Both the position numbers and the translations under genes were made by a program. Source: Bacteroidota bacterium (GTDB lineage Bacteria > Bacteroidota > Bacteroidia > Bacteroidales > FEN-979). Taken from it: a stretch of DNA of 64,000 bases. Shown here one piece after another: positions 12,952 through 46,929 of this stretch. The first letter of the stretch is position 1. The number at the start of each line of letters is the position of its first letter. The notes beneath the pieces are model-generated. The model did no database searches and was not told where the DNA came from. It saw only the letters and a program-made list of their open reading frames with translations. The stretch lies in NCBI GenBank assembly GCA_037134895.1, contig JBAXLI010000013.1, forward strand, positions 8,668 to 72,667, in the 5' to 3' direction.

Positions 12952-14694
12952 TTAAGTTCCTTTCCGAAGTGTTTTATTTGCGAGTTCGGGATTAATACTT
13001 GAAACAGCTTCAAATTGAGACAGGTGAACTTTGCCTGTAAGCTCATCGAGAAAATGGGAACGCTTTAACAGATCCATCACCGGTCCCTTGACCTCTGAGA
13101 GATGAAAAGTAATTCCTCCGTCTTTGAGCCTGTGATTTATAGCTTCAAGGCTTTCGAGTGCAGAACTGTCGATTGTATTCACTGCCGGACATTCAAGTAT
13201 TATATGGCGGATGGCAGGGTTCGCTGCCACTGAATCGTTAATAAGATCTTCAAGAAAACGGGCATTCGGAAAATACAGGCTTTCGTCTACTCTCAGCGAT
13301 AGTATCTCCGGATCGGTTATCACCGTATGGCGACTAACGTTTCGAAAACTGGTGGTCCCGGGGATCTGACCAACGACTGCAACATGCGGACGGGAGGTTT
13401 TATAAAGGTGGAGTAAAATTGACAGTCCGACTCCCGCAACCAATCCAATTTCAACACCTTCAACCCAGGTCATGAGGATGGTTGCAGCCATTGCTGCAAA
13501 GTCGGTCTTTGAATAAGCAAATGTTTTCTTCAGTGCTTTCAGATCGACCAGTGAAAACACGGCAACGATAATTGTTGAGGCAAGGACTGCTTTAGGAAGA
13601 AAAAAAAGCAAGGGCGTCAGGAACAAGGTGGCAAGAGCTACACCGATCGCAGTATAGGCGCCGGCTGCCGGCGTTTGTGCTCCTGCATCAAAATTAACAA
13701 CTGAACGGGAAAGAGCGCCGGTTACCGGGAAACTTCCTGATATTGATGATCCGACGTCTGAAATTCCGAGAGCGATCATTTCCTGGTTAGGATCGACCCT
13801 TTGCCTGCGCTTGGCAGCGAGAGTCAAAGCAACCGATATAGATTCTACATAACCCACGATGCAAATCAGGAGTGATGGAACAAGAAGTTTGCTCCAGAGC
13901 ACAGGTTCCAAAGGAGGTATTGAAATCTTAGGTAATCCCTTCGGGATAAGCCCAATAATTGCGACACCCTGGCTGGAAAGACCGAAACCCCAAACGGCGA
14001 GTGTTGTAATAAGTATGGCTAATGCCGGTCCCACTTTTGACAGGATATCGGCCAGTTTCTCATTTATTCCTATTCCAAGTAAAAAAGGCTTGAGCCCCTT
14101 TCTCCCCCAGAAAAGGAAGATCAAAGCAGCGAGTCCTATCCCGGCTGTATATGGATTGATCTTAATAAGATTTGGTCCCATCGAGATCAGCAGATCCAAA
14201 AGATTCTCCCCGCTTCCACGGATGCCAAGCAGAGGTGCAAACTGACCAATACCTATCTGCACTGCAGCAGCAGTAATAAAACCTGAAATAACCGGGTGAC
14301 TGAGAAAATTAGCCAGGAAACCCAGGCGCAACACCCCCATCACGATTAGCAAGAGTCCCGTGACCATGCTTAATGCAATCACTGCTCCCAGATATTCAGG
14401 GGTTCCCTGGGTTGCCACAAGCCCTGCAGCAGCCGCTGTCATGAGGCTGGCGACTGCAACAGGACCAACGGCAAGGGCTCGGGATGTACCGAAAATCGCA
14501 TACAGAAGCAAAGGTGCCATTGAAGCATAAAGACCGACTTGTGCCGGCAGCCCAACCAGCATCGCATAAGCCAGGGACTGGGGGATCAGCATGATCGTGA
14601 CGATCACGGCAGCAATCAGATCGCTGACAAGGATCTGCCGGGAATATGAAGCCCCCCAGTCAAAAATCGGAAAATAGCGGCGAAGCAAACGCAT
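12952..14694 (-). CDS. SulP-family inorganic anion (sulfate) transporter with C-terminal STAS domain
   Basis: 580 aa. N-terminal SulP signature region (DLIAAVIVTIMLIPQSLAYAMLVGLP), multiple TM segments and a C-terminal STAS fold (ILSLRVDESLYFPNA...IDSSALESL). Confidence 0.85.
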   Translation of the reverse strand: MRLLRRYFPIFDWGASYSRQILVSDLIAAVIVTIMLIPQSLAYAMLVGLPAQVGLYASMAPLLLYAIFGTSRALAVGPVAVASLMTAAAAGLVATQGTPEYLGAVIALSMVTGLLLIVMGVLRLGFLANFLSHPVISGFITAAAVQIGIGQFAPLLGIRGSGENLLDLLISMGPNLIKINPYTAGIGLAALIFLFWGRKGLKPFLLGIGINEKLADILSKVGPALAILITTLAVWGFGLSSQGVAIIGLIPKGLPKISIPPLEPVLWSKLLVPSLLICIVGYVESISVALTLAAKRRQRVDPNQEMIALGISDVGSSISGSFPVTGALSRSVVNFDAGAQTPAAGAYTAIGVALATLFLTPLLFFLPKAVLASTIIVAVFSLVDLKALKKTFAYSKTDFAAMAATILMTWVEGVEIGLVAGVGLSILLHLYKTSRPHVAVVGQIPGTTSFRNVSRHTVITDPEILSLRVDESLYFPNARFLEDLINDSVAANPAIRHIILECPAVNTIDSSALESLEAINHRLKDGGITFHLSEVKGPVMDLLKRSHFLDELTGKVHLSQFEAVSSINPELANKTLRKGT

Positions 14695-14725: not shown

Positions 14726-16414
14726 TTAATCCTGGCTGCAATGTGAACGTGAAAGCATTCCGCCGGAGATATTCTTTGCTTTGAACCCCTTCTGTAAAAG
14801 GATTCTTGTGGCATAGTAAGCTCTCTGTGCCGAACGGCAGATCACGAGTATTTCACGGTCGCGTGGGAGTTCGCCGATTCGCGAACGGAGCTCTGGCAGC
14901 GGAATGTTTAAGGCTCCGGGAACTGATTCAACAGCCAATTCCTGGGGATTGCGAACATCGAGGAGGAAACCATCGCCCAAATTGTCCCAATGAGTGAGAG
15001 GCATATCACCATTAAGTACATCAACGGCAACCATCCCGGCAAAGTTGACAGGATCTTTTGCGCTTCCGTAAGGTGGTGCATAGCTCAGTTCCGATTCTTC
15101 GAGATCGTAAATTGTACAACCCATCTGAATGGCCATCGCAAATGAATCTATACGTTTGGCAACACCATCCTCCCCAAGCACCTGGGCTCCTAAAAGACGC
15201 CCATTGGATTTCCGGAAGAGTACTTTGATGATGAGCATCTTTGCCCCGGGGTAATATCCGGCATGAGAATTAGGATATAAATATATTTTTTCATAGTCGG
15301 TATCTCCGAGCTGCTTTAGTACTTTTTCGCTTACACCGGTTTGCGAGATCGTTGCATCAAAGATCTGGCAGATTGAAGTCCCCTGGGTCCCGCGATAATG
15401 TGCATTGCGACCGGCAATCACATCAGCGACTATGCGTCCCTGCCGGTTTGCAGGTCCTGCAAGAGGAATAAGCGCCCATTGTCCGGTCACAAAATCCTTT
15501 ACTTCAATAGCATCTCCAACTGCAAAAATATCAGGATCGGAAGTATGCATCTGATCATCCACGCGAATCCCACCCCTTTTACCTATCTCGAGACCGGCAG
15601 ACTTTGCCAGCGCCGTTTCAGGGCGCACACCTATTGCCATGATCACAATATCGGCCGGATGCGCTTTGCCTGATTCTGTTAAAACCTCAAGCGAACCTTT
15701 GGCCGACTTCCTGAATCCGGCAACTCCGTCGTTCAGTTCGACATGAATACCGTGCTTTGTCATATAACGCTCAACCAGTCGCGCCATCTCGCGATCCAGC
15801 GGAGGCATAACCTGGTCGAGCTTCTCTATCAGCGTCACTTCCAGGCCACGGTGGACAAGGTTTTCGGCCATCTCCAGTCCGATGAATCCTCCACCTACCA
15901 CAACTGCACGTTTTGGTTTTGATACCGTATCGATGCCGGAGTATGGGTTCGTGACCTCATTACGGTCTGAATCCCTTTCAAGCCATTCACGTATATGCCT
16001 TGCATCAGGCACAGTCCTCACCGAGAAGATACCCGGAAGATCAATACCGGGCAAGGGAGGACGGATCGGAGCTGCCCCGGGAGAAAGCACGAGTTTGTCA
16101 TATTTTTCTGTACTGACTTCACCTGTAATATGGTTTTTCAACTCTATAGTTTTCTTTTCCGGCGAAATACTGATCGCTTCACAATTCGTTCTGCAGTCTA
16201 TGGCAAACTGGTTCCGAAACAATTGTTCCGTGGCAACCAGGAGAGAAGATTCCTTTTCAATCGAACCGCCAACATGATAAGGCAATCCGCAGTTCGCATA
16301 AGAAACATAGGGTCCGCGTTCCACCATCAGGATTTCGGCCTTTTCATCCAGCCTCCGCAGCCGTGCAGCACAGGAGGCGCCACCTGCTACTCCGCCAACA
16401 ATAATTACTTTCAT
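14726..16414 (-). CDS. CoA-disulfide/persulfide reductase-like flavoprotein fused to a C-terminal rhodanese domain
   Basis: GxGxxG (IIVGGVAGGASCA), redox Cys motif SYANCGLPYHVGG, a second dinucleotide fold (VVVGGGFIGLE), and a C-terminal rhodanese loop ILVICRSAQRAYY. Confidence 0.8.
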   Translation of the reverse strand: MKVIIVGGVAGGASCAARLRRLDEKAEILMVERGPYVSYANCGLPYHVGGSIEKESSLLVATEQLFRNQFAIDCRTNCEAISISPEKKTIELKNHITGEVSTEKYDKLVLSPGAAPIRPPLPGIDLPGIFSVRTVPDARHIREWLERDSDRNEVTNPYSGIDTVSKPKRAVVVGGGFIGLEMAENLVHRGLEVTLIEKLDQVMPPLDREMARLVERYMTKHGIHVELNDGVAGFRKSAKGSLEVLTESGKAHPADIVIMAIGVRPETALAKSAGLEIGKRGGIRVDDQMHTSDPDIFAVGDAIEVKDFVTGQWALIPLAGPANRQGRIVADVIAGRNAHYRGTQGTSICQIFDATISQTGVSEKVLKQLGDTDYEKIYLYPNSHAGYYPGAKMLIIKVLFRKSNGRLLGAQVLGEDGVAKRIDSFAMAIQMGCTIYDLEESELSYAPPYGSAKDPVNFAGMVAVDVLNGDMPLTHWDNLGDGFLLDVRNPQELAVESVPGALNIPLPELRSRIGELPRDREILVICRSAQRAYYATRILLQKGFKAKNISGGMLSRSHCSQD

Positions 16415-16512: not shown

Positions 16513-16980
16513 TTATTGTTTTTTCTCCAGAAATGGAATATTCTGGAGCAGTCGGGCACGAATTGCCGTTAAAATGTAATTTTCGATCTGGTAGAATTGG
16601 GTTGCAACCAAACCGTCTGATATTGCTTTTACCTTCGTATAACAAGTTACAATCAGTGCATCAGTTTTTTTCTGGAGGTCAATCACCTTCATTGTCCAGG
16701 CATCAGCCTGTGCCGCAGTCATTGTCTGGTATTGGCTGGCATACTGCTTTAACAGTTCGATCCTCTGTTTCCCCAGGTTTTTCCGTTGTGTTTCATATTG
16801 GTCATACAACTTCCAGAAAGCATCTTTTTGCGTGGCTGAAGGTTTTACAAAATCGGCTACAACTGCCTTTTTATCCATCCCGAATGCGGCCTGCATCAGG
16901 TCAATCTCTTCCTTATCCGATTGAGTATACGCAAACGATGAAAGGAATAATGCTGCAATAATAAAAATGTACTTTTTCAT
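16513..16980 (-). CDS. Periplasmic helical hypothetical protein
   Basis: Signal peptide (SSFAYTQ) and predicted all-helical composition. Two xTxxQ motifs faintly recall CpxP/Spy-type proteins; I make no firm family call. Confidence 0.45.
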   Translation of the reverse strand: MKKYIFIIAALFLSSFAYTQSDKEEIDLMQAAFGMDKKAVVADFVKPSATQKDAFWKLYDQYETQRKNLGKQRIELLKQYASQYQTMTAAQADAWTMKVIDLQKKTDALIVTCYTKVKAISDGLVATQFYQIENYILTAIRARLLQNIPFLEKKQ

Positions 16981-17016: not shown

Positions 17017-17065
17017 CAAAAATACGCGCATATCAAGTCATGAGCAATAGTTAACGATGAGTATT
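17017..17065 (-). promoter_or_regulatory. Candidate operator plus -7 box (site S1). Minus strand: AATACTCA-TCGT-TAACTATT G, then 20 nt, then TATTTTTG
   Basis: The box is at 17017-17024 (plus strand CAAAAATA) and the palindrome at 17046-17065. It lies about 37 nt upstream of the 155-aa gene start at 16980. Confidence 0.5.
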
Positions 17066-17090: not shown

Positions 17091-18053
17091 CTATCCTGCT
17101 GATCCGTCAGTCCGTCCAAAAGCCTCGTCAATCATAACCTGAAAGCGCTGAACAACTTCATTCGAAGGTGTTTTGTAATCGTCAAGTTCGTAAACTACAC
17201 CGAGCGATTCATACTTGCCAAGTCCAAAACGGTGATAGGGCAGCAGTTCATAATCAATCACATTCTTGTGCGGCTTGATAAATTCCAGTACACCCAGGAT
17301 ATGTTCATCATCGGCATTCACACCGGGAATCAAAGGCGTACGGGCAATAAAATCGATGTGAGGAAACGTTTCGTAGGCTTTTTTAAAATTGGCCAGAATA
17401 CGCTCGTTACCTACGCCTGTCCATTTTTTATGCCTTTCGGAATCCATCAATTTCAGGTCGTGAAGCATGGTATCAACATGTGGAAGTACTTTCTCGAGGA
17501 AGGACCAGGGAGCGTTACACGCTGTTTCGACGGCTGTATTGATTCCCCGGCTATGGGCTTCCTGCAGCAAAGCTGCTGCGAAGTCGGGTTGCAGCATAAC
17601 TTCACCTCCGCTTATCGTCATGCCGCCTCCGGTATTGCGATAGAAGGAAGCATCTTTTTCTACTTCTTCCATTACTTCGCCAACCGTCATTGTTTTGCCA
17701 AACATTTCGAGGGCGCCGGTGGGGCAAAGTGAGGTGATTTCTTCCGTAATGCCTTTGGCCAGCTGCCAGTTGACTTTTACCTTTGAATCGTCTCCCTCCA
17801 CAAAATAAAAAGCGCCTTCAGGAAATGGAGACTTAAGGCATATGCTGCATTCTTTTCCTTTGCACTTTTTGGGATCATAAGAAACCTCAGGCTTCATCCC
17901 TATGCTTTCAGGATTGCCGCACCATTTGCAACGCAGGGAACAACCTTTTATGAACACATTTGTGCGGATACCGGGGCCGTCGTGGCTGCAATACCGCTGG
18001 ATATTTAGTACACGGCCTGTTATATCCAATCTGTTATTTGTCTGATTTGTCAT
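17091..18053 (-). CDS. Glycyl-radical enzyme activating protein (radical SAM activase with ferredoxin-like insert)
   Basis: N-terminal GRE-activase fingerprint CSHDGPGIRTNVFIKGCSLRCKWCGNPES (CxxxCxxC). Extra Cys-rich region (KCKGKECSIC ... LCPTGAL). ATG 18053 is preceded by GGAGGG with a 7-nt spacer. The track starts earlier, at 18089. Confidence 0.9.
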   Translation of the reverse strand: MTNQTNNRLDITGRVLNIQRYCSHDGPGIRTNVFIKGCSLRCKWCGNPESIGMKPEVSYDPKKCKGKECSICLKSPFPEGAFYFVEGDDSKVKVNWQLAKGITEEITSLCPTGALEMFGKTMTVGEVMEEVEKDASFYRNTGGGMTISGGEVMLQPDFAAALLQEAHSRGINTAVETACNAPWSFLEKVLPHVDTMLHDLKLMDSERHKKWTGVGNERILANFKKAYETFPHIDFIARTPLIPGVNADDEHILGVLEFIKPHKNVIDYELLPYHRFGLGKYESLGVVYELDDYKTPSNEVVQRFQVMIDEAFGRTDGSAG

Positions 18054-18066
18054 GATTCTTCCCTCC

Positions 18067-19224
18067 TTATTTTCCAAGGTAAATACCAAGTGAATCCGCT
18101 ACCTGGAAAAACATGCTTTCAGAGGGTATCGTTCTTACTTTGTTGATGGCCTCGGCAAGTGGAACGAACTTAATATCCGGAGGAACAAACGCCACCATTA
18201 CCCCGTTTTTACCGGCTTCGAGCGCCTGAATGGCTCCTGCGCCGTAAGCCACACCCAACTGGCGATCGACTGCCGATGGTGCGCCACCCCTGACCCAGGG
18301 GCCGATTACCATTGGAAAAGTTTCTTCGGCTATCCTCAGTTGCAAGCCATCGGCAACTGCCTGTGCTGCCTGGCCTGACTTATGAATAACGAATTCACTA
18401 TTGGAATCACTGGATGCCAAAGGCGATAAAGAAGCTTTGAGAGAGGATACTTTTTCTTCTTGTTTCTTCTGATTCAAAATTTTTGCACCTTGAGCCACTA
18501 CTACCAGGCCCCAGGATTTTTTACCAAGCATTTTATTTTTAAGATGTGTTGCCACATTTTTCAAATCCACCGGAATTTCAGGAATCAGCACTGCATCGGC
18601 AGCAACGGCAATACCGGCCTGTAAGGCAATCCATCCGGCTTCCTCTCCCTGCACTTCGACCACTGCAATTTTATGGGCGGCCTTTGCTGCCAAACGCGCA
18701 CGGTCGAGCATGTCGATAGTAAAAGTAAGCGCCGTGTTGAACCCGAATGACACCGAAGTGGATGCAATTTCATTTTCGATAGAGCGTGGTACGCACACCG
18801 CATTCAATCCTTTTTTGTGAAGCTGGTAAAGAATACTCAGTCCTCTTCCGCCAACTATCGAAATTACAGCATCAATATTTTCTGCTTTTAATTTTACCAG
18901 CAATTCATCCGACATGTCAACTTCCTCCACCATTTCAAGTTCATTGATGGTGCGGACATTGAACGGATCTATCCTGGAAGACTGGCCGAGAACACTGCTT
19001 GTGTTCGGATCCATATTCAATACCCGCGGATCGATTGGAATTAATCCGCCATTGGGGTATTTTTCGGGATGAAGCAAGCCTTCAAATCCATCGCGGATGC
19101 CGACAAGTTCCCATCCCAATTTTCCGGCAGCAAGAGAGGCTCCTGCAACAACGGCATTTATCCCGGGAATGTAGCCGGCGCCTACCATAATGGCAATGCG
19201 TTTTTGTCCTGTATCTGTACTCAT
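18067..19224 (-). CDS. Phosphofructokinase-fold (PfkA family) protein with substituted catalytic residues
   Basis: Colinear with PfkA, but GGDAPGMN is GAGYIPGIN, GGDGS is GGRGL, GTIDND is RSIENE, MGR is QGE and GHxQRGG is GPWVRGG. The comparison is made from memory of E. coli PfkA. Confidence 0.7.
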   Translation of the reverse strand: MSTDTGQKRIAIMVGAGYIPGINAVVAGASLAAGKLGWELVGIRDGFEGLLHPEKYPNGGLIPIDPRVLNMDPNTSSVLGQSSRIDPFNVRTINELEMVEEVDMSDELLVKLKAENIDAVISIVGGRGLSILYQLHKKGLNAVCVPRSIENEIASTSVSFGFNTALTFTIDMLDRARLAAKAAHKIAVVEVQGEEAGWIALQAGIAVAADAVLIPEIPVDLKNVATHLKNKMLGKKSWGLVVVAQGAKILNQKKQEEKVSSLKASLSPLASSDSNSEFVIHKSGQAAQAVADGLQLRIAEETFPMVIGPWVRGGAPSAVDRQLGVAYGAGAIQALEAGKNGVMVAFVPPDIKFVPLAEAINKVRTIPSESMFFQVADSLGIYLGK

Positions 19225-19311: not shown

Positions 19312-21729
19312 CTATTCACAACGCTGCAGGGTACGATCGATGATCTCGTTTTGTACACCTACGTGCAGTTTGGTGAAGAATGCGCTGAAACCGGCAACCC
19401 TGACCACGAGATCGCGGTATTTTTCGGGGTGTTTCTGTGCATCCCTGAGGATTTCGGTGTTCAGTACATTGAACTGGATATGGTATCCACCGTTATCAAA
19501 CAGCGTCTTGACCAGACGCAGCACATTATCCCGGCCTTTGCGGGTATCGAGCTGATCCGGTGGAAGCTTCATGTTCATGTGCGTTGCACAATATGCAACT
19601 GCATCAATTCCTTTTGCTCCAGACATTACCAATGCAGTCGGTCCGTTGACATCGGTGCCCGGCATGGCCGAGATACTTCCGTCGGTGAGCGCCACACCGG
19701 CCTTCTTGCCGTTCGGCAGCGCCCCGGTCACCATACCAAATGGGTTGTGGGCACTCTTGGTATAGGCATCGAGCGAGGTCTTGATGTCCTTGCTGATGTG
19801 GTTACCACCGCCATCCACATTGTTAAATGCATGCAAGATGGTGTTGTAAATCCGGCGGACAAACTTGTTTACTTCAGGGATGTCGTTGCCATGCTTGGGT
19901 GCTTCAAAACACATCTTCCCTATTTTAGCATATTCTCCCTCGAAGTTGGCAGCCAGGGCTTTTTTTAGTTCGGCCATAGTCACCTTCTTGTCGTCGTACA
20001 CCAGTTTCTTCACTGCCATCAGCGAGTTGGCCGCATCCACGCCTCCGATGGAGATCTGGGCAACCGTGTAGTAGTTGGCCCCGCCCTCCCAGACCTCTTT
20101 ACCGGTCTCGAGGCATCCGCCGGTCAGGACGGAGCGCCAGGCGCAAGGGAGGAAATCTGCCTGAAGGATGCTTGCAATCCAGGCTGAACGACGAAGCGTG
20201 TCCTCGCAGGCTTGAAGTTGCTTCTCGAATGCGGTATATAGTTCTTCGAAGCTTTTGAAGCTCTCAGGATCCCCGCTCTTGGGTCCTATCTGCTTCTTGG
20301 TGCGGGGATCGAAGCCGTTGTTCATCGTCAACTCGATGATCTTGCCGAGGTTGGGTTGGCCCTCCACCGGGTGACCAGTCTCATAAGGGATGTAGCTTCC
20401 CACACAGGCTCCGACGCAAGTACGTCGGGCTTTCTCTAACGGGAGATAACCATTCCTTTCGGTCCAGCCCCAAAGGTTCAGGGCCCGCTTCAACATCACT
20501 TCGGCATTCACGAACTGAGGCATGCCCATACCAGTACCTATAACATCGAGTACTTTTTCCAGGAATTTGCCGCTCATCTGCTCTGTATAGGCACACGAAA
20601 GCGGAGGTTGCGGCAGAGCGAGATAGGCTGCTGAATCCAGAATCACGTAGTCCATTTCGGCAGTGGCATCTTCACCATTCCCGGTATAACCGCCGAGGGT
20701 GATGCTCTGTCCCAGATCGGCGGAGTTCTGCTTAGCGATTCTCTCGCCATAGTAGTAGCCGATTTCATTCAGCTTGATGGAGAGATTCTGGAACATGTAG
20801 ACAGCATCGTCATAAGTAACAAGCCCGGCGGCCTTGTCGGCCTGATAGAATGGCTCCAGATTCTGTCCCAGGAAGGCTTCAGAGTACCCGCAGCCGATCT
20901 GCTCGAGTTCTGCCACGAGGTGACTGAAGAAGTGACTTTGGATTGCCTCCCTCAGATTCCGGGCAGGATGCTCGGGAACCCATTCGCAGGTTTCTGCAAT
21001 CGCGATCAACTCGGCTTTCCGGGCTTCATTTTTCTCTTTAGCAGCCATCTCCCTTGCCAACCCGGCATAACGATGGGCAAACCGGATCGCTGCTCTCATC
21101 ACGATGAGGGTTCCCTCATAGAAGTAGAACTTGGACATGTTTGGCATACGCATCTCGAGAGCCATCTGCCGTTCCTCTACCTCCTTGATTATGCTGGCAA
21201 GCCCCTCCCGGTAAACCCGCGGGTAGTTAAGATTGCCACCGCCGGCCGGCCAGTCAGAGAACGATCCAAAAAGGCCGGCGTCGGTAGATAGCTTTGGGTC
21301 GTATCCATATCGCTTCTGAAAAATCTCGTCGACCCGGGGTTTCATCGCACGTTTGCCCCAGTAGTCGAGCGCCCACTGGTTGGCCTTCTTATCTTCCGGA
21401 GTCGGCGACTTTTCTACCGTATTCTCTTCTATCATCCAATCCACCTGCCATTCGGGATAGGGGTACATGGCATTGGTCTTGCCGGCCATGGCGCCGACAA
21501 AGAGGTTGTCGTCGATATACAGTTTCTTACGATCCAGAACGGCTGCCAGGAATTTGGCACGTCGGAGTACCTGGTTATCTCCAGTGGTTTCCCCATAGAC
21601 ATCATGCATGATCCTAACCCGCTCGAAGTCGAGTTCAGGCTCCGTGCTCCTGAGTTGTTCTTTCAGCCGGTCGATACGCTTCGTATCGGTGTTGACCTTT
21701 GCTGTGAAAATGTTGCTTTCATTTGTCAT
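19312..21729 (-). CDS. Glycyl radical enzyme (PFL-fold), unassigned subfamily
   Basis: 805 aa from ATG 21729, with AGGAG 8 nt upstream. C-terminal fingerprint VVRVAGFSAFFTK. Candidate thiyl Cys in RRTCVGACVGSYIPYE. N-terminal IDRLKEQL...RAKFLAAVL...LYIDDNLFVG is typical of non-PFL GREs. The track ORF begins 32 codons earlier (21825). Confidence 0.9.
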   Translation of the reverse strand: MTNESNIFTAKVNTDTKRIDRLKEQLRSTEPELDFERVRIMHDVYGETTGDNQVLRRAKFLAAVLDRKKLYIDDNLFVGAMAGKTNAMYPYPEWQVDWMIEENTVEKSPTPEDKKANQWALDYWGKRAMKPRVDEIFQKRYGYDPKLSTDAGLFGSFSDWPAGGGNLNYPRVYREGLASIIKEVEERQMALEMRMPNMSKFYFYEGTLIVMRAAIRFAHRYAGLAREMAAKEKNEARKAELIAIAETCEWVPEHPARNLREAIQSHFFSHLVAELEQIGCGYSEAFLGQNLEPFYQADKAAGLVTYDDAVYMFQNLSIKLNEIGYYYGERIAKQNSADLGQSITLGGYTGNGEDATAEMDYVILDSAAYLALPQPPLSCAYTEQMSGKFLEKVLDVIGTGMGMPQFVNAEVMLKRALNLWGWTERNGYLPLEKARRTCVGACVGSYIPYETGHPVEGQPNLGKIIELTMNNGFDPRTKKQIGPKSGDPESFKSFEELYTAFEKQLQACEDTLRRSAWIASILQADFLPCAWRSVLTGGCLETGKEVWEGGANYYTVAQISIGGVDAANSLMAVKKLVYDDKKVTMAELKKALAANFEGEYAKIGKMCFEAPKHGNDIPEVNKFVRRIYNTILHAFNNVDGGGNHISKDIKTSLDAYTKSAHNPFGMVTGALPNGKKAGVALTDGSISAMPGTDVNGPTALVMSGAKGIDAVAYCATHMNMKLPPDQLDTRKGRDNVLRLVKTLFDNGGYHIQFNVLNTEILRDAQKHPEKYRDLVVRVAGFSAFFTKLHVGVQNEIIDRTLQRCE

Positions 21730-21805: not shown

Positions 21806-22345
21806 TCATCTGAGCAATTCTTCAAAATGGATGGCTGTTTGAGCCTGTTTCTCCAGAAGAGTATTTAATTCATTGGCCGTTCTGATCCGCCTTGCAACAA
21901 CCTCGGTCAACCCTTTACGGAAACTCTGGATGGTGTATTTGAAATTATTTTGATCGAAAATTTCGCACTTTACTATATGATCGGTTGGATTATCGCTTTC
22001 CTGTTTACATTCGTGACATGCCCCGTAAAGAGTTGTTATTTCATCTTTAACCGTCTGTGAAGTCCACGTGATCTCTCCATAACCTCCGAATTCATTGTGC
22101 CATAACTGGACCCACCTGCGGAGATCACAGCGCCAGCCTGAAATGGCTACCTGTATAGTATCGTCGATAACTCCTTCCCCCACAGGGACAATCAATCCAG
22201 GTTCGGTTCCCAGGGATGAAAATGTTCCCTGTGTTTTCGGCCAGTTGAAAACAACCTCACGCTGAAATTCCCCGTTTTTGGTAAGTTTGGCAATCCAGCT
22301 TCCCCCAAAAAAGTCACGAAATAATTTTGCCGTTAATTCAGCCAT
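21806..22345 (-). CDS. Hypothetical 179-aa protein with four Cys, first gene of the GRE operon
   Basis: Best start is MAELTAKLF at 22345; the track ORF extends to 22486 across the promoter region. Cys are at residues 73, 110, 113 and 127 (GACHEC). I recognise no family. Confidence 0.5.
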   Translation of the reverse strand: MAELTAKLFRDFFGGSWIAKLTKNGEFQREVVFNWPKTQGTFSSLGTEPGLIVPVGEGVIDDTIQVAISGWRCDLRRWVQLWHNEFGGYGEITWTSQTVKDEITTLYGACHECKQESDNPTDHIVKCEIFDQNNFKYTIQSFRKGLTEVVARRIRTANELNTLLEKQAQTAIHFEELLR

Positions 22346-22398: not shown

Positions 22399-22447
22399 CA
22401 AATGTACCGTGATCTAATACCAGGAACAATACTGACAGTTCTGTATT
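22399..22447 (-). promoter_or_regulatory. Candidate operator plus -7 box of the GRE operon (site S7). Minus strand: AATACAGA-ACTG-TCAGTATT G, then 20 nt, then TACATTTG
   Basis: A perfect TAnnTTTG box is at 22399-22406 (plus strand CAAATGTA) and the palindrome at 22428-22447. Spacing is identical to S1-S4. It lies 54 nt upstream of ATG 22345. Confidence 0.5.
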
Positions 22448-22452
22448 TTTAT

Positions 22453-22460
22453 TACATTTG
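22453..22460 (+). promoter_or_regulatory. Candidate -7 box (TACATTTG) for the LuxR-family regulator gene
   Basis: Matches the Bacteroidota TAnnTTTG consensus. It lies 37 nt upstream of ATG 22497 and only 5 nt from the S7 palindrome. Confidence 0.4.
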
Positions 22461-22496
22461 CAAGAAGTCAAAAGTAGAATAGGCAAATTTCATCTT

Positions 22497-23255
22497 ATGC
22501 ATAATACTCCCTATAGTTACAGCATATTTTTTGATTTTATTGAATCCTACCTGCCATCGGGGTTCCTTGATATTCATGCTGACGATCCTATCATGCTGAA
22601 GCTCGGGAATCTCATGGAAGAGAATGACCAGTTCTTCACTGTTTCAGATCTGGGGCAGATTAAATTCCTGTTTGCCAGTGAACGGATCCGGCAAATGATC
22701 GGGGTAGAGCCAAAAGAGCTTAATCCAGGGCATTTTGTGGAAGTCACCCACCCGGATGATCTGAGCCGGATGGGTTTGTTAAGGGCACAGACATTCATTG
22801 TGGAAAAGGAGGTATTGCAATCAAACAAGGGGAGTGCATTGGTGTCATTCACAATCAGGTTGCGCAATCCGGCCGGAATTTATTCTAATCATCTATGCCA
22901 GGCCTATTTTTTTTATTCTCCGGTTCCACGCCAGGTAGTTTATCTGATCCAGGTTATCAGCAATGTTGGCTGGTTCAAAATGAAAAAACAGGACTATCAC
23001 TATTATAAAGGAAAGGACTTATCCTATTTTAAATATCCTGATGAGGAATTGTTGAAGATGGGACCTCCTTTTTCCCAACGCGAGCTGGAAATCATCAAAT
23101 TGATTGAGGCGGGCCTTAGCAGTAAACAAATCGGGGAAAAATTATTCCTGAGCATGCACACCGTGAATACACATCGTTCCAATATTTTGGAGAAGTCAGG
23201 TAAATCACAAATTTCGGATCTGATTTACCACCTTAAGGAACAGGGACTGCTTTAA
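22497..23255 (+). CDS. LuxR/GerE-family transcriptional regulator with N-terminal PAS-like sensor domain
   Basis: C-terminal HTH: FSQRELEIIKLIEAGLSSKQIGEKLFLSMHTVNTHRSNILEKSG. The N-terminal ~170 aa have a PAS-like pattern (HPDDL...). The track starts at TTG 22458, inside the -7 box; ATG 22497 is preferred. Confidence 0.8.
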   Translation: MHNTPYSYSIFFDFIESYLPSGFLDIHADDPIMLKLGNLMEENDQFFTVSDLGQIKFLFASERIRQMIGVEPKELNPGHFVEVTHPDDLSRMGLLRAQTFIVEKEVLQSNKGSALVSFTIRLRNPAGIYSNHLCQAYFFYSPVPRQVVYLIQVISNVGWFKMKKQDYHYYKGKDLSYFKYPDEELLKMGPPFSQRELEIIKLIEAGLSSKQIGEKLFLSMHTVNTHRSNILEKSGKSQISDLIYHLKEQGLL

Positions 23256-23276: not shown

Positions 23277-24338
23277 TCAGGCTTGCTTCACTTCATTATT
23301 CGAATTAATCCATCCGACAAATAATCTGTATCCAAGCGACATCACAATTGCTCCTGTAAAGAGCCCGATAAATCCGGAGAATATGAATCCGCCGATCACA
23401 CCGATGAAAATTACCACCATGGGAACCGGAGCGCCTTTGCCAAGCATTATAGGAGTAAGTACGTTGTCTGAAAGGGCAACCAGCACCAGGGCAATAGTCC
23501 ATAATATGGCCGGCAGAATGGCTTTCACTGCGAAAAAATAAATAATGATGGGTACCGTGACAATGAATACAGGTAGTTGAAGGACTGCAAAAATAAATGC
23601 GATCAATGCCCATATCCCGGCATAGGGAACCCCTGCCAGAAAGAACACTATTCCATTTAACAAGCCCATCACGAGAGACTCTCCAAGGATCCCTTTTACA
23701 ACGCTTGATACTGTCTTCAGGGTCAAATCAGCAAATTCATCCCCCCTGTCACCTCCAACTTTCCTGAAAAATTTACGAATATTCTCACCTGTGCCACCAA
23801 TCGCCAGCAGAATCCCTGCAATGAAAAGCGAAACCATGATCTGGATTATGCTGCTAAAAGCGCTTAGGAGACCTTGTGCCATTTTTTTACCGAATTCCAG
23901 AAGCTGGTCCTGGTATTTTAGCACGATTGGTTTGATGTCGGTGTCTACATCCTTCCAGAAAGCATAAAATTTTTCCCCGATGACCGGCCATTCTTTTACC
24001 TTTTCTGGTGGGGGAGGAATGCTCAGAGTACCGCTATCATAGCTTACTTTGAGTGCTTTCACTTCATCAAAAAGAGAATCTACCAGTAACCAGGTGGGAA
24101 GGATAATAATGACAAGGATAGAAAAAACAATAATGAAAGAGGCCAGTTTAGGCTTTTCTCCCATCTTCTTTGAAAGACTGCTGTGGAGCGGATAAAGCGC
24201 AAGGGCGAGTACCATACTCCACAGCATGATACTTACAAACGGATACATAATCGCCAGGCACCAGGCAATGATGAGCAAAAGGATGAAAAGCCTGATTGTG
24301 GTGTCGTAAACGGAATTATTTGAAGATTGATTATTCAT
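23277..24338 (-). CDS. AI-2E family transporter (PerM/UPF0118 permease)
   Basis: 353 aa with about 8 TM segments. The characteristic layout has a soluble insertion between TM clusters, and the N-terminal LFILLLIIAW...PLHS region is typical of the family. Confidence 0.7.
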   Translation of the reverse strand: MNNQSSNNSVYDTTIRLFILLLIIAWCLAIMYPFVSIMLWSMVLALALYPLHSSLSKKMGEKPKLASFIIVFSILVIIILPTWLLVDSLFDEVKALKVSYDSGTLSIPPPPEKVKEWPVIGEKFYAFWKDVDTDIKPIVLKYQDQLLEFGKKMAQGLLSAFSSIIQIMVSLFIAGILLAIGGTGENIRKFFRKVGGDRGDEFADLTLKTVSSVVKGILGESLVMGLLNGIVFFLAGVPYAGIWALIAFIFAVLQLPVFIVTVPIIIYFFAVKAILPAILWTIALVLVALSDNVLTPIMLGKGAPVPMVVIFIGVIGGFIFSGFIGLFTGAIVMSLGYRLFVGWINSNNEVKQA

Positions 24339-24444: not shown

Positions 24445-25665
24445 CTATCCAATCCGCATTCCAGATGCCAAAGGATCTGCTGCCTGTGGAAGTTTCGATG
24501 TAGTCCTCTTCTTCCATTCATCTTCCAGCAGTTCCCTGGCAGCCTGTTCCAGGAATTCGGGTGCGGACCATTTTCGCACATCGAAATTGTTCTTAATGTA
24601 ACCGTGACTCAGCATGAAGTCCTTCCCTATCTCAACTGAAACCAGGTTCTGCGATGACAGGTTCGGCACCATATCGACAAGCCTGATCCCTTCATAGGTA
24701 TCTTCAACATCACGATAGAAGGTCTGTTTGTCCAGGATGGCTGCTGCAGCATGTTTGTGCTCATTGGCCCAGCGCCCGACTTTGATCATGCCTTTCAGGA
24801 AGGCAACAGCTAATTCAGGGTGCTTTTCTGCCATAACATCGCTGCAGGTGATGGCAGCAGGGATATTGGCCACCTGCAAGGTCCAGTCAGGATACCTCGA
24901 GAGGTCTTCAATGGATTTAAATTTTCCTGTTGTTTCGGAGAGTATACTAAGCACCTTGCTCTGGCTGTACATGGCATCGATTACTCCTTTTTCAAGAGCT
25001 GTTTCCAATGGGCGGAATGCCAGGTCATGTTTATGATCGCGGCGAAGCCATAATTCTGACGGATTTTCCATTTCAGGGCCCATCATTTCAGGTATGTCAT
25101 ACCAATCATCCGGATAAGGGAATTCAACGATCTGAACATCATTCCTTGTCATACCATTTACTCTCAGCATCAGCTCGATTCCCTGCTCTTCCTGGATGCC
25201 CCACCAGTCGGTCTTTATTTTATTCTGGCTCCTGGATAAACCTATCTTTTTACCTTTCAGGTCAGCCATGCGGTATATATCGTCCCTTGAGCGTACGATC
25301 ATCACTCCGCCTTCTTTTGGCACATGTGTCACTCCTAAAAGCCTGGTTCTGCGAATATCTGCCTGTACGTGAATCGGAGGGAACAAGCCGCCAAAGCGGA
25401 TAATATTATCCATATTATGTATGTAGTGAGGATACCAGTCGTTTTCTTTGCGAGCCCGCAGATAAAGGTACTTCACATCCATCTTCTTATATATTTCCTT
25501 GGTCCAGCCCAGTTCCTGGTCTACATTGCTTGCTGAAACCAGCGGACAATTAGTGTAATAAACCTCATTCCAATCCAGCGGCACTGTTTTGAGTTTGCCT
25601 GCCTTTTTCGCATTGGCAATAATTTCTTCCATGGTCGGAGCCGTTCTTGTTGTTTCGTTTGCCAT
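24445..25665 (-). CDS. Cytoplasmic NMT1/SsuA-fold protein resembling DszB (2'-hydroxybiphenyl-2-sulfinate desulfinase)
   Basis: No signal peptide. Blocks match my recollection of Rhodococcus DszB: YTNCP vs YSNCP (catalytic Cys), HYIHNMDNIIRFGG vs HFTYDQPAYTRFGG (His...Arg with the same spacing), RTRLLGVT vs RTRLLGIT, ADLKGKKIGLS vs ADLAGRRIGVS, and WSAPEFL vs WAAPEFL. Confidence 0.6.
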   Translation of the reverse strand: MANETTRTAPTMEEIIANAKKAGKLKTVPLDWNEVYYTNCPLVSASNVDQELGWTKEIYKKMDVKYLYLRARKENDWYPHYIHNMDNIIRFGGLFPPIHVQADIRRTRLLGVTHVPKEGGVMIVRSRDDIYRMADLKGKKIGLSRSQNKIKTDWWGIQEEQGIELMLRVNGMTRNDVQIVEFPYPDDWYDIPEMMGPEMENPSELWLRRDHKHDLAFRPLETALEKGVIDAMYSQSKVLSILSETTGKFKSIEDLSRYPDWTLQVANIPAAITCSDVMAEKHPELAVAFLKGMIKVGRWANEHKHAAAAILDKQTFYRDVEDTYEGIRLVDMVPNLSSQNLVSVEIGKDFMLSHGYIKNNFDVRKWSAPEFLEQAARELLEDEWKKRTTSKLPQAADPLASGMRIG

Positions 25666-25736: not shown

Positions 25737-25785
25737 TAAAAATACGCTCATATGCTGTCATTGACAATACTTAACACTCAGTATA
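25737..25785 (-). promoter_or_regulatory. Candidate operator plus -7 box (site S2). Minus strand: TATACTGA-GTGT-TAAGTATT G, then 20 nt, then TATTTTTA
   Basis: The box is at 25737-25744 and the palindrome at 25766-25785, upstream of the DszB-like gene. About 50 nt are nearly identical to S1. Confidence 0.5.
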
Positions 25786-28378: not shown

Positions 28379-28903
28379 TCAGGCCGACGGCTTTCCCTTC
28401 AGAAAAATGTCGAGAACCACTTTGGGCCCAAGCACTCTGGAAAGTTCGTGAATGGCAAAAAAAGGAATAAAGGCGGTGAACACGATCAGTGAACCACCGA
28501 AGTACTCGTAAGTTCCGATATGAGATAAGGAATCCGTAATACCCTGCATTGTGTAGGTATGAAAAAAACCTTTTACCGATAATTCTATTGCATTAAAAAT
28601 TGCAAGCCAGACTGTAAACATTAATGATCTGCCAAGTATTGACCAGATCAGCGGCCTGTTTTCAAACCAATGGCCAAGCCTCATCATACTGCCTATTGAA
28701 ACAACTTTACCAAGTACCAATGCATTGATAAGCCCGAAACCCCATTCTGTATAAACAATGTTTTGTTCAGCAAGGACCAGACGTTTATAAGTGATAAATA
28801 CCGCAAAAAAAACCGCAAGGTATGCCACGTTGATCCAATATTCAATAAATTCTTTTTTAAATTTTTCTTTAAAGGTTTTCTTTGTTTTGACTTCTGCATC
28901 CAT
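28379..28903 (-). CDS. Hypothetical integral membrane protein (about 4 TM)
   Basis: Lys-rich N-terminus followed by four hydrophobic segments. No recognised family. Confidence 0.45.
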   Translation of the reverse strand: MDAEVKTKKTFKEKFKKEFIEYWINVAYLAVFFAVFITYKRLVLAEQNIVYTEWGFGLINALVLGKVVSIGSMMRLGHWFENRPLIWSILGRSLMFTVWLAIFNAIELSVKGFFHTYTMQGITDSLSHIGTYEYFGGSLIVFTAFIPFFAIHELSRVLGPKVVLDIFLKGKPSA

Positions 28904-28926: not shown

Positions 28927-28975
28927 TAAAAGTACATTCTTTCCTTACAATGTACAATACTTAATACTGAGTATT
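28927..28975 (-). promoter_or_regulatory. Candidate operator plus -7 box (site S3). Minus strand: AATACTCA-GTAT-TAAGTATT G, then 20 nt, then TACTTTTA
   Basis: The box is at 28927-28934 and the palindrome at 28956-28975, 24 nt upstream of ATG 28903. Confidence 0.5.
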
Positions 28976-29938: not shown

Positions 29939-30721
29939 TCAGGATTTGGTTCTTCGCAACAAGGCATCACCATCGCTGTGGCTGTCGAAATAATACAGTT
30001 TGGCTACGGTTATGCGCTTTGCGAGAAGGCTGCAGGCAAGGCTTGCAAGGAAGGCGCCTGCAAACGGACCGATCCAATAGATCCACCATCCCGTCCACTC
30101 ACCGGATATAATTGCCGGGCCAAGACTACGTGCAGGATTTGTACTGGTTCCTGAGATTGCTGCTTCCAGGGGAACCATTATCGCATAGAGAAACGGAATC
30201 ATAAACGGAGTAAACTGCCGGAGGTGTCTGAATCCAATAAAAATTACAAGAAGTGAGACCAAGGCAAAAGTTGTGATAACCTCGCCAAACAAAACGGTAT
30301 AAACGGAGTATCCTTCTCCCGGCACGGTTGCACCGAACAAAACACTCCGCCCCATATCACCCCAGAGGAGGAGGGGCAGACAGCCAGCAACAGCACCGGT
30401 CAATTGTGCCAGTATGTATGTGATTGCCAGGCGTGGTTCAATCTTACGAAACAACAGGAATACCATTGTAACTGCCGGGTTGATATGCGCCCCGCTGACT
30501 TTTCCTATCGGGGATAGTGCAATCGATGCGCCTATAGATCCAAAAAGGAAACCGGTGATCATTTGTCTTACTTTAACATTCGGGATCAGCTGCCCTAAAG
30601 GACTACCATTCCCGAACATAATAATAACGAGTGACAGGCCGCCCAGCAATAACAGAGCAGTACCAATGAATTCGGCAACAAAAAACTGAACGCGGTATCT
30701 TAGATCATTTACATCATTCAT
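29939..30721 (-). CDS. MIP-family channel (aquaporin/aquaglyceroporin-like)
   Basis: Two NPA boxes (SGAHINPAVT and GTSTNPARSLGPA) and six TM segments. Confidence 0.85.
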   Translation of the reverse strand: MNDVNDLRYRVQFFVAEFIGTALLLLGGLSLVIIMFGNGSPLGQLIPNVKVRQMITGFLFGSIGASIALSPIGKVSGAHINPAVTMVFLLFRKIEPRLAITYILAQLTGAVAGCLPLLLWGDMGRSVLFGATVPGEGYSVYTVLFGEVITTFALVSLLVIFIGFRHLRQFTPFMIPFLYAIMVPLEAAISGTSTNPARSLGPAIISGEWTGWWIYWIGPFAGAFLASLACSLLAKRITVAKLYYFDSHSDGDALLRRTKS

Positions 30722-31868
30722 ACAATGTAAAATTTATGCAAACAGGAGAAACTATTTTGACCGTTTGAGATGTTTGACTCAACTGGCCGCTGGCCTGATC
30801 GATCCTGAAGAGAACAATATTATCCGAGTTCTGGTTTGCTACAAAGAGCCAGTGACCTGTTGGATCGATTTCAAAACTGCGCGGGGTCTCACCCCCGGTT
30901 GAAACCCATTCGACCGGTGTCAGGCTTCCATTTTTTGAATTAATACTGAAGAGTCCGATATTATCAGCCCCCCTGTTCGAAACATAAAGAAATTTTCCTG
31001 TGGCGTCCAGAGCTATCTCCGCCGCAGTATTTTCACCGTGGAAGATTTTGGGAAGCGTTGAGATGGTTTGCTTCGCCAGCATCCTACCGGTTTCTGATTC
31101 ATATGAAAAGCTGGTAATTGTTGAGCTTAACTCATTCAATACGTAAATAAATTTCCCTGATGGTGGAAACGCAATATGTCTTGGACCTGAGCCGGGATCC
31201 AACTTTACAAACCCTGAGTCTATGGGGAAAAGAGAACCATTGCCGGCATCGAACCGGTATTTTAAGATTTTGTCAATTCCAAGATCGGCTATCATGACAT
31301 ACAGGTTGTCGTTGGTCACCCTGATATAATGAGCATGCGGTCCGGTCTGCCGTTTAGGGTTAGGACCTGACCCCGTATTTTGAATGAATGCTGTATGCTC
31401 ACCAAGTTTACCATCCCTTCCTACCGGGAACACAACTGAATTACCACCGTTGTAATTTGCGACCATCAGGTATCGGGCTGATTTGTCAAGTGACAAATGT
31501 GCCGGAGCTGCTCCCAGTGAAGAAATCTGCTGAAGCAATGTCAGCTTACCCGACTCCTTGTTGATTGCAAATACACTAACTGCCCCGCTTTGCTTATTAT
31601 GAAAAGAATCTGTCTCATTAACTGTATATAGGAATCGTCCTTTTGAATCAATGGTGATAAAGGATGGGTTTTCCGTTTTTGCGACAAGCCCTAAAGGTTT
31701 CATGTTCCCTTTTGCAGGATTGAAACTGTAGGCATAAATTCCTTCACTGCCCTTCCCGGTATACGTTCCTACAAAAACAAGGCATTTATGATGGGGTTCG
31801 GAGCACGCATGTAGAAACAGGATCGGAAATAGTATAAATGCCAGATTTAAAATCCGATTGTGCTTCAT
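30714..31868 (-). CDS. Lactonase, 7-bladed beta-propeller family (6-phosphogluconolactonase-like), lipoprotein
   Basis: Lipobox (LHAC). Repeated propeller motifs include GAAPAHLSLDKSARYLMVANY, GPRHIAFPPSGKFIYVLNE and PRSFEIDPTGHWLFVANQ. Confidence 0.75.
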   Translation of the reverse strand: MKHNRILNLAFILFPILFLHACSEPHHKCLVFVGTYTGKGSEGIYAYSFNPAKGNMKPLGLVAKTENPSFITIDSKGRFLYTVNETDSFHNKQSGAVSVFAINKESGKLTLLQQISSLGAAPAHLSLDKSARYLMVANYNGGNSVVFPVGRDGKLGEHTAFIQNTGSGPNPKRQTGPHAHYIRVTNDNLYVMIADLGIDKILKYRFDAGNGSLFPIDSGFVKLDPGSGPRHIAFPPSGKFIYVLNELSSTITSFSYESETGRMLAKQTISTLPKIFHGENTAAEIALDATGKFLYVSNRGADNIGLFSINSKNGSLTPVEWVSTGGETPRSFEIDPTGHWLFVANQNSDNIVLFRIDQASGQLSQTSQTVKIVSPVCINFTLYE

Positions 31869-31920: not shown

Positions 31921-32976
31921 CTATATTTCCGAGAACTGGATGACAACTTTGATGTCCTCAGGCCGTCTTTGCAAGGCAAGCGTAAAATCCTCAGGTTTTT
32001 CCCGCCTGCTGATGAGTTTTGCCAGCCAGTTTTTATCAGCTTTTGCAAGCGTTTGACCGGCTCGGTACCATTGGCGCTTATTTGCATTCACACTACCAAC
32101 GATTACAGTATTTCTTAAGACTGCGGAAGCAGCCATATCAGCAGTTGCGGCCTTTGTCATATGACCTCCATGGCCGACGCCTGTCAGACATAAAATTCCA
32201 TTTGCAGCTAATTGCTGGATACAAGCTTCAATTACTGGTCCCACTCCCGTACATTCTACAATTGCATCCGGTTCAAATCCGATATCAGCGACATTGCCAG
32301 AGTGATAGATAGCACCCAGTTCTCTAACCAGGTCAGGTTTGGACCCTGACTCCATCCTGTCAAGGACATGGATTTCTTCTATCCCCCAGATCTTCAAACT
32401 GAGGGCCGCCAGCAGTCCTATCGGACCTGCACCTGTAACCAGCACTCTGGAAGGCTCCCAGAAAGAACGGCGGCTTATCATACCTATCTGCTCCAATGCT
32501 TTAGTTACAACCGTTGTAGGTTCAAGGAGAACACCCAGGATACCCAGTGAAGAATCGACTTTAATAGCGTATTCAGGCTCTATCCTCCATCGTTCCGACA
32601 TATATCCGTGGATCTCTTTGATCCCCCGTTCTGTATAAAGTCCGTTACGGCACATGTCCCATTCCCCCACCGCACAATTCGGACAAGGGACAGGATCGGG
32701 ACGGCGCACGATCCCTACAACCAGGTCCCCTTTTTTGAAACCGCCTGCAGTGCCGGGATCTATTACCCGGCCCAGGGATTCATGCCCCAAAATAAGATAC
32801 TGCTGGCCCGGAGGGGCCCAGCCATACTTCCCTTCGACAATTTCGACATCTGTACCGCATACTCCGACGGCAATAGCCTCCACGAGGATTGACCCATCCC
32901 TCAAATCCGGCTCCGGCATATCCATAAGCCTCGCCGTTCCCGGCTTTTTAGGTTCGACAGTAATTGCTTTCATCAT
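31921..32976 (-). CDS. Zn-dependent MDR-family dehydrogenase, glucose 1-dehydrogenase-like
   Basis: MKAITVEP...VGVCGTDVEIVEGKYG...LGHESLG, a structural-zinc Cys cluster (PDPVPCPNCAVGEWDMC) and a GAGPIGLL Rossmann motif. Resembles archaeal-type glucose dehydrogenases. Confidence 0.65.
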   Translation of the reverse strand: MMKAITVEPKKPGTARLMDMPEPDLRDGSILVEAIAVGVCGTDVEIVEGKYGWAPPGQQYLILGHESLGRVIDPGTAGGFKKGDLVVGIVRRPDPVPCPNCAVGEWDMCRNGLYTERGIKEIHGYMSERWRIEPEYAIKVDSSLGILGVLLEPTTVVTKALEQIGMISRRSFWEPSRVLVTGAGPIGLLAALSLKIWGIEEIHVLDRMESGSKPDLVRELGAIYHSGNVADIGFEPDAIVECTGVGPVIEACIQQLAANGILCLTGVGHGGHMTKAATADMAASAVLRNTVIVGSVNANKRQWYRAGQTLAKADKNWLAKLISRREKPEDFTLALQRRPEDIKVVIQFSEI

Positions 32977-37249: not shown

Positions 37250-37355
37250 AGTTCTTACGGTTTTCCCTGACAAATACATAAGACAAATAGAAGAGAATGT
37301 AAAAACATCCTCTTCTATCTGCAAGGTTTAAAAAACAATGTGTATAATTGAATAT

Positions 37356-46926: not shown

Positions 46927-46929
46927 TAT

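Follow-up and report, generated by a model that had tools for sequence, protein, structure and literature searches.

Does a relative of the aryl-sulfinate desulfinase DszB in a Bacteroidota genome still cleave a carbon–sulfur bond, and what would such an enzyme be doing near a glycyl radical enzyme (GRE)? The question arises from a 64,000-nucleotide stretch of contig JBAXLI010000013.1 (the window, in what follows), in which an open reading frame (ORF) at 24445–25665 (−) encodes a protein of 406 residues. The original prediction, made from the letters alone, had pointed to blocks of DszB in this protein, considered such an enzyme unexpected in an anaerobic Bacteroidota and read it, together with its neighbours, as part of a sulfinate or sulfonate cleavage pathway. 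Comparison of sequences, profiles and predicted structures identifies the gene as a cytoplasmic member of the DszB family that is no component of a transporter. Within this known family the protein belongs to an uncharacterized and very conserved subfamily, and the genomic setting is new.

Placement within the DszB family

The ORF is genuine, with an ATG start and the codon of Cys40 at 25546–25548, as had been stated. In a phmmer search of all PDB sequences the best match is DszB (2de2_A, E 3.5e-11, query residues 35–375 against chain residues 22–360), and every one of the predicted blocks is recovered in this alignment: YTNC40P pairs with YSNC27P, H80-x9-R90FGG with H60-x9-R70FGG, RTRLLGVT with RTRLLGIT, DLKGKKIGLS with DLAGRRIGVS and WSAPEFL with WAAPEFL. 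A family profile built from 32 relatives matches DszB over its full length at 4e-38, as against 1e-10 at best, with partial coverage, for the SsuA/TauA binding proteins. This supports membership of the DszB family rather than of the transport binding proteins. The AlphaFold2 model (predicted local distance difference test (pLDDT) 89, predicted template modelling score 0.88) leads to the same family, the top three Foldseek matches being DszB chains (E 6e-20, template modelling scores 0.66/0.77), ahead of SsuA and Thi5. DszB (also TdsB or BdsB), the 2'-hydroxybiphenyl-2-sulfinate desulfinase of structures 2DE2 and 2DE3, likewise is cytoplasmic and cofactor-free and has the type II periplasmic-binding-protein fold, and the catalytic Cys, the His-Ser/Thr dyad, the R-F-G-G element and the RTRLLG, DLxGxxIG and WxAPEFL motifs occur in both. 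The window protein differs from DszB in having N- and C-terminal extensions of ∼30 residues each.

Public annotation offers another reading, in which the protein would simply bind sulfonate, nitrate or bicarbonate for an ABC transporter, and source annotations give the subfamily proteins that role. The overall fold is indeed that of SsuA/TauA/NrtA-type binding proteins and of NMT1/THI5, and weak matches exist to the Pfam NMT1/THI5-like model PF09084 (20.9 bits, cutoff 20.5, a marginal match to residues 121–182 alone) and to NCBIfam SsuA_fam TIGR01728. The latter, however, reaches 56.5 bits where the cutoff is 163.5, the NCBIfam taurine and SaoX models gave no significant match when scored against the protein, and SsuA structures are far weaker matches than DszB. 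SsuA-type proteins are secreted and encoded beside permease and ATPase genes, whereas the window protein is cytoplasmic and has no such neighbours. As had been noted earlier, it carries no signal peptide, because its N-terminus is hydrophilic, like those of 77 orthologs (median of the maximum 10-residue hydropathy, 0.5); an ABC ATPase-like ORF lies within 6 kb in just 1 of 77 loci. Taken with the sub-cutoff scores, these observations effectively refute the annotation, and a transport role is extremely unlikely.

Membership of the family does not extend to orthology. In a neighbour-joining tree the window clade is nested among other relatives as a derived paralogous clade, while DszB forms a deep branch, 24–31% identical to all members. 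More distant paralogs (the 'YTICPV...RDGG' group, from ssu/sfn/dsz-like clusters) are 30–46% identical to the window protein, and they resemble it in having no signal peptide and in retaining the Cys/His/Arg-x-Gly-Gly residues. Unlike the window subfamily, they lie beside genes for ABC permeases and ATPases, luciferase-like monooxygenases, acyl-CoA-dehydrogenase-like proteins and nitroreductases, in clusters with SsuD/DszA-type and DszC-type sulfur-scavenging genes, carry acidic residues at positions 91, 106 and 368 and diverge at ordinary rates. For the sister lineage (P0125, P0127), gene contexts come from contigs of only ∼2–3 kb and are uninformative.

The catalytic residues are retained in relatives at 25–94% identity. 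C40, H80, R90, G92 and G93 are invariant in an alignment of 32 full-length relatives (26–94% identity), and a YTNCP-type Cys motif is found in 72 of 78 subfamily ORFs. In DszB, C27 is the essential proton donor, H60 and S25 form a dyad, R70 belongs to a conserved RXGG motif along with G73, and F61, W155 and F203 provide hydrophobic contacts (PMC6100217). T38 of the window protein aligns with S25, so that the hydroxyl of the His-Ser dyad is kept, and R90-F-G-G93 is identical to the RFGG of DszB, with the same H-x9-R spacing. A three-group site comparison found 41 sites held in common with the other relatives and 9 with DszB. The sites shared with DszB alone include F91, R106 and A368, which adjoin the catalytic residues and are D/E in 19 intermediate relatives; this loss of acidic charges fits an anionic substrate. 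The active site thus appears DszB-like and anion-friendly, with a substrate that, judged from the alignment, is not biphenyl-like, since the hydrophobic contacts of DszB are not conserved. The best-supported, though tentative, reading by analogy is that of a desulfinase-type lyase, which would free SO2/sulfite from a small, polar, anionic and possibly aromatic sulfinate or thiosulfonate.

A widespread sulfur gene island

The expectation that such a protein would be surprising in an anaerobic Bacteroidota did not hold. A protein database search in which 8000 candidates were scored returned 2951 clusters with E below 0.001, and each of the best 120 clusters is at least 85% identical to the window protein; an exhaustive library at 50% identity comprises 924 representatives. 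In a species-level scan (one genome per species) a relative was found in at least 566 genomes. Identity is 72–94% in the best 80 of these, which comprise Bacteroidota, Acidobacteriota, Nitrospirota, Ignavibacteriota, Planctomycetota, Actinomycetota and Verrucomicrobiota, several Proteobacteria, archaea of the Methanomassiliicoccaceae and the aerobic isolate Eudoraea adriatica. Plasmid-borne orthologs occur at 67–71% identity in Rhizobium leguminosarum and R. johnstonii. Given this range over many phyla, with aerobes and archaea included, the DszB-like protein is not peculiar to anaerobic Bacteroidota, and the Eudoraea and Rhizobium carriers rule out an anaerobe-specific protein.

Neighbouring genes were examined by calling and clustering ORFs in 87 loci, of which 55 are well flanked (at least 5 kb on each side). 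The most frequent neighbour is a CoA-disulfide-reductase-like flavoprotein with a rhodanese domain (38 of 87 loci), followed by SBF (33) and SulP (31) transporters, LuxR regulators (25), PAS histidine kinases (22), single-domain rhodaneses (19), GRE (18), its activase (17), a PFK-fold protein (16) and DUF202 (15). Among the well-flanked loci, a rhodanese-domain gene (rhodanese or CoA-persulfide reductase) lies within 8 kb in 36, a SulP, SBF, DUF202, MarC or AI-2E transporter is present in 39, a regulator in 34 and a GRE in 14. The reductase-rhodanese and SulP neighbours named in the original prediction are therefore borne out, but the GRE is not a constant partner. In contrast to DszB, the window subfamily has rhodanese/CoA-persulfide reductase, SulP/SBF and radical enzymes as its linked partners and never monooxygenases of the dszA/dszC type, genes for which were found neither in the window nor in the 87 related loci.

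In the window, the reductase (14726–16414, −) is a flavoprotein of the CoA-persulfide reductase/Npsr type with a C-terminal rhodanese domain. Its PDB matches (CoADR-RHD of Bacillus anthracis, 3ICR, E-168; Npsr of Shewanella, 3NTA, E-158; CoA-persulfide reductase of Enterococcus faecalis, 8A56, E-144) indicate an ortholog-level match to characterized CoA-persulfide reductases. It is flanked by a SulP-STAS anion transporter (12952–14694, −) and by a 155-residue protein with an N-terminal signal-like segment (16513–16980, −), which is conserved in 11 loci. The DszB-like gene itself is followed, as had been described, by a gene for an AI-2E family transporter (23277–24338, −); no terminator-like site was found between the two genes, which are probably co-transcribed. 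Reactive-sulfur systems of the CstR/cst type (E. faecalis, Staphylococcus aureus) and Npsr of Shewanella loihica resemble the island in their ortholog-level reductase-rhodanese, their rhodaneses and their anion transporters. They differ from it in having no DszB-like protein, GRE or benzoyl-CoA-reductase (BCR)-like enzyme, and in using CstR-type regulators rather than PAS-LuxR proteins or histidine kinase/response regulator pairs.

That rhodanese, CoA-persulfide reductase and anion transporters are the tightest and widest linkage lends itself to a different chemistry, in which the substrates would be sulfur oxyanions, either inorganic or bound to a thiol; thiosulfate, polythionates and S-sulfonates (R-S-SO3−) are examples. 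Cys40 would then be a nucleophile on sulfur, with the His/Arg/Gly pocket stabilising sulfite as it leaves. The persulfide or mixed disulfide so formed on the enzyme would be passed to the rhodanese/CoA-persulfide reductase for reduction. The charged lid and anion-friendly site would suit such substrates, and so would the archaeal and Eudoraea loci, in which the DszB-like gene is followed by rhodanese and membrane protein genes with no radical enzyme. However, rhodaneses already use thiosulfate alone, so that an extra enzyme is not obviously needed, the Cys of DszB is a proton donor and not a nucleophile (PMC6100217), and the carbon-radical enzymes (GRE or BCR-like) of the same island would be left unexplained. 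Sulfur oxyanion chemistry of this kind is a possible but rather unlikely explanation.

The components of the island differ in how far they have diverged from their window copies. The PFK-fold protein (median identity 90%), the activase (87%) and the DszB-like protein (85%) have changed least, followed by the GRE (76%), the reductase (73%) and SulP (70%), and the LuxR regulators stand at just 50%. A GH63/MGH1-like glucosidase that travels with the island (34517–37324, −) is 77% identical to the copy beside the module on the Rhizobium plasmid. This identity pattern and the glucosidase match indicate, at the sequence level, horizontal spread of a strongly constrained module that would be wired to local regulators. 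The subfamily moves between bacterial and archaeal phyla within a sulfur-handling gene island.

Several further genes were recorded in and around the module. A zinc alcohol dehydrogenase (31921–32976, −) and a lactonase-family gene (30714–31868, −) travel with the island in several phyla, and genes for an MIP channel and an MscS channel are also near it in the window. A formylglycine-type sulfatase is encoded at 10242–12605 (+), near the module, and sulfatase genes recur in 10 related loci. A second SulP-STAS transporter gene (40984–42708, −) lies beside a short-chain dehydrogenase gene. A small ORF for a Cys-x-Cys peptide with the motif GP(A/T)CACGKGDLYEEWLK lies directly upstream of the DszB-like gene in three loci (L001, 9796–9990; L003, 9651–9869; L004, 9746–9964). 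It was dropped from consideration, being confined to these closely related Bacteroidota loci and absent from the window.

Regulation and the two radical systems

The regulatory motif said to join the DszB-like gene to the other operons is real. A 38-nt promoter/operator block (25738–25775, −; 2 matches against 0 expected) occurs in the window solely upstream of the DszB-like gene and of the operon for the 155-residue protein, reductase-rhodanese and SulP. The block as a whole was not found in other genomes, where only its palindromic core is conserved. This core, AATACT-N8-AGTATT, has 11 window matches with up to 2 mismatches against 2.9 expected, a number reached in 0 of 100 shuffles, and the five copies with at most one mismatch all fall within promoter regions. 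Three of these putative operators concern the module: one at 25766–25785 (1 mismatch), which overlaps a promoter-like −35/−10 pair upstream of the DszB-like gene, one at 22428–22447, in the divergent promoter between a LuxR gene and the GRE operon, and one at 17046–17065, upstream of the operon for the 155-residue protein, reductase and SulP. The other two are perfect copies, at 28956–28975, upstream of the gene for a 174-residue membrane protein (28379–28903, −), and at 38078–38097, intergenic and upstream of a DUF2254 membrane protein gene (38260–39543, +). No operator with up to 2 mismatches was found near the second SulP-STAS gene.

The palindrome recurs in 18 related loci, all but one labelled as Bacteroidota-type (including Eudoraea and a metagenome-assembled genome of the Sphingobacteriales). 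It is almost always intergenic there, and lies upstream of DszB-like genes 12 times, of genes for the orphan protein u226 (described below) 8 times and of LuxR genes 22 times. The shared palindrome supports, as had been proposed, that the GRE and reductase-rhodanese-SulP operons are co-regulated with the DszB-like gene. Its probable binder is the PAS-LuxR/GerE regulator encoded divergently from the GRE operon (22458–23255, +).

The proximity of regulators, which are adjacent in 34 of 55 loci, raises the question of whether the DszB-like protein is an enzyme at all. It might instead be a non-catalytic cytoplasmic ligand-binding protein, either a sensor partner of the LuxR or histidine-kinase regulators (resembling AmiC-AmiR) or a subunit that serves the radical enzyme or SulP as an accessory or by delivering substrate. 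This would agree with the periplasmic-binding-protein fold, with a very high conservation (median 85%) that would suit many protein contacts, and with the Rhizobium plasmid, where the gene lies between those for the catalytic and ATPase subunits of a BCR-like enzyme. Such a role is nevertheless unlikely, and markedly so: the full DszB catalytic set, Cys included, is invariant, the regulator type varies by phylum (LuxR or histidine kinase/response regulator) at ∼50% identity against 85% for the DszB-like protein, and there are loci with neither a regulator nor a radical enzyme near the DszB-like gene.

The GRE operon begins with u226 (21806–22345, −), an orphan protein of 179 residues whose family has 294 database matches, all 'hypothetical', and no Pfam assignment. 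Its gene also heads the DszB-like operon in Eudoraea, and its model is a β-barrel of low confidence (pLDDT 65) with a weak lipocalin-like match only. It is followed by the GRE (19312–21729, −; ∼805 residues from the ATG at 21729), a PFK-fold protein (18067–19224, −) and the GRE-activating radical SAM enzyme (17091–18089, −), whose ORF overlaps that of the PFK-fold protein by 23 nt. In place of SGGDAPGMN, GGDGS and GTIDNDI of a solved PFK, the PFK-fold protein has GAGYIPGIN, GGRGL and RSIENEI. With its catalytic motifs so altered it is probably not an ordinary phosphofructokinase; it may be a kinase put to another use, or an accessory subunit of the GRE.

The best matches of the GRE are HypD, glycerol dehydratase and CutC, and IslA is a weaker one; the NCBIfam HpsG model, also among the weaker matches, gives 417 bits, with a cutoff of 1000. 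The catalytic Cys of the GRE aligns, but the non-canonical loop around it reads A-C-V-G, as against G-C-V-E in HypD and in the glycerol and propanediol dehydratases. The Glu of the C-V-E loop is the general base of the 1,2-eliminase class of GREs, IslA included. The GRE desulfonation systems (IslA isethionate sulfite-lyase and HpsG/HpfG) resemble the window in combining a GRE and activase within a sulfur-related gene set; they differ in the Glu two residues past the catalytic Cys, where the window GRE has Gly, and the PFK-fold protein is a further difference. Because Gly replaces the general base, sulfonate cleavage of the known IslA/HpsG type is doubtful for this GRE, and its assignment as a sulfite-lyase of that type was downgraded. 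It may run a reaction type other than those of the known 1,2-eliminases.

A second version of the island carries a different low-potential enzyme. On the plasmid of R. leguminosarum ATCC 14479 the order is MscS, kinase and response regulators, two '2-hydroxyacyl-CoA dehydratase family' subunits, the DszB-like gene, two 'acyl-CoA dehydratase activases', SBF, two rhodaneses, SulP and the glucosidase. The dehydratase and activase genes form a four-subunit operon for a BzdNOPQ-like ATP-dependent reductase (L091, 9496–14924), which is thus present in an aerobic rhizobium. The catalytic pair of subunits best matches BzdO and BzdN of class I benzoyl-CoA reductase (8S02; E 8e-23 and 1e-40) and the ATPase pair best matches BzdQ-type subunits, though all four score well under the equivalog cutoffs. 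A metagenome scan with the BzdO-like subunit yielded 69 soil and wetland contigs (L093–L161) at 43–94% identity, most at 73–94%. The operon is linked there to a small rhodanese (16 contigs), SBF (12), the DszB-like gene (11) and reductase-rhodanese (5), and the DszB-like gene lies beside it in 5 of the 7 contigs longer than 12 kb; a GRE was never found beside it among the 69. Since the BzdNOPQ-like operon is linked to DszB-like and rhodanese genes but never to a GRE, the island holds one of two alternative oxygen-sensitive radical or low-potential systems, the DszB-like gene and rhodanese being constant.

Partners of this kind (BCR-like enzyme and GRE) are typical of anaerobic aromatic carbon metabolism, which would accommodate a lyase that shares the fold but acts on a group without sulfur, such as a decarboxylase or dehydratase of aromatic compounds comparable to 4,5-dihydroxyphthalate decarboxylase, MqnA or THI5. 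Same-fold enzymes of other chemistries do match the DszB-like protein weakly (the decarboxylase 9jp7, E 0.01; Thi5, Foldseek E 6e-13). DszB, however, is far closer than either, the residues specific to its catalysis are kept, and the constant neighbours are sulfur enzymes and SulP, all of which makes a non-sulfur lyase very unlikely.

Apart from the island, the window encodes at 46546–47283 (+) two ORFs of 126 and 117 residues, below the 150-residue listing threshold and unrelated to the DszB-like finding. The 126-residue ORF has a GGFTTFSSF motif, and we take it to be a CrcB-type fluoride channel.

Proposed role and its implications

If the DszB-like protein is a desulfinase-type lyase, then by analogy with DszB Arg90-Phe-Gly-Gly93 and His80 would hold the −SO2(−) group of a small, polar, anionic organosulfur substrate, Cys40 would give a proton to the sulfur-bearing carbon under the influence of the His80-Thr38 dyad, and cleavage of the C–S bond would release SO2/sulfite. 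The substrate would probably be a sulfinate, or a thiosulfonate stripped first of its outer (sulfane) sulfur by the neighbouring rhodanese. The CoA-persulfide reductase-rhodanese might then convert sulfane sulfur to H2S or join it to sulfite as thiosulfate, with anions moved by the SulP, SBF and AI-2E transporters. Where present, the GRE set or the BCR-like enzyme would make the substrate or use the carbon product under anoxia, and the PAS-LuxR regulator would turn the gene set on through AATACT-N8-AGTATT. Class I benzoyl-CoA reductases reduce aromatic rings, and the chemistry of DszB is the ipso-protonation of an aromatic carbon; the suggestion that the substrate may be aromatic draws on these two parallels.

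A number of observations weigh against this assignment. The protein is just 25% identical to DszB, its clade is not sister to DszB in the neighbour-joining tree, and the correspondence of Cys40, His80 and Arg90 to the DszB triad is one of alignment. Around these residues, Y81 replaces F61 of DszB, W155 sits in an insertion present only in DszB, and the F203 region aligns with a charged lid, RRDHKHD. These unlike contacts imply a different substrate, and the chemistry might differ too. Linkage to rhodanese suggests the involvement of sulfane sulfur, for which a desulfinase alone has no need, and sulfinates and thiosulfonates of natural origin are not known to be abundant in soils or sediments. 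Literature searches returned nothing on this subfamily or on a link between desulfinases and GREs.

Taken together, the island probably marks an undescribed sulfur-compound pathway. The sulfinate or sulfonate cleavage pathway originally predicted remains a reasonable, though unproven, hypothesis; a sulfonate route of the IslA/HpsG type is made doubtful by the C-V-G loop of the GRE. A more ambitious proposal is that the island as a whole provides a hitherto undescribed, oxygen-independent route of C–S cleavage for aromatic or stabilised organosulfur compounds, combining a radical system, the DszB-like lyase and rhodanese/CoA-persulfide reductase. The GRE set or the BzdNOPQ-like reductase, used interchangeably, would here prepare the substrate or consume the product, the lyase would cleave the C–S bond by protonation and free SO2/sulfite, and the rhodanese and CoA-persulfide reductase would handle the inorganic sulfur. 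We consider this full scheme unlikely as it stands. If true, it would be the first physiological role of DszB chemistry outside aerobic 4S desulfurization, in a module that extends over bacterial phyla to methanogenic archaea.

DszB has, as far as we are aware, been studied almost solely as the slow final step of aerobic fuel desulfurization. The relative described here keeps its catalytic residues and is always annotated as a 'transporter binding protein'; the gene ranks among the most conserved in a sulfur island that occurs in archaea and in bacteria of soil, sediment and root nodules. The existence of cultured carriers (R. leguminosarum ATCC 14479, protein WP_112908153.1, and E. adriatica DSM 19308) makes its function directly testable. 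Should it prove to be a desulfinase-type lyase, the subfamily would account for a step of the organic or intermediate sulfur cycle that needs no oxygen and, though widespread, has gone unrecognised. It would also supply physiological partners for the CoA-persulfide reductases, whose role remains debated in some organisms, and a source of naturally diverse and possibly faster DszB-type catalysts.

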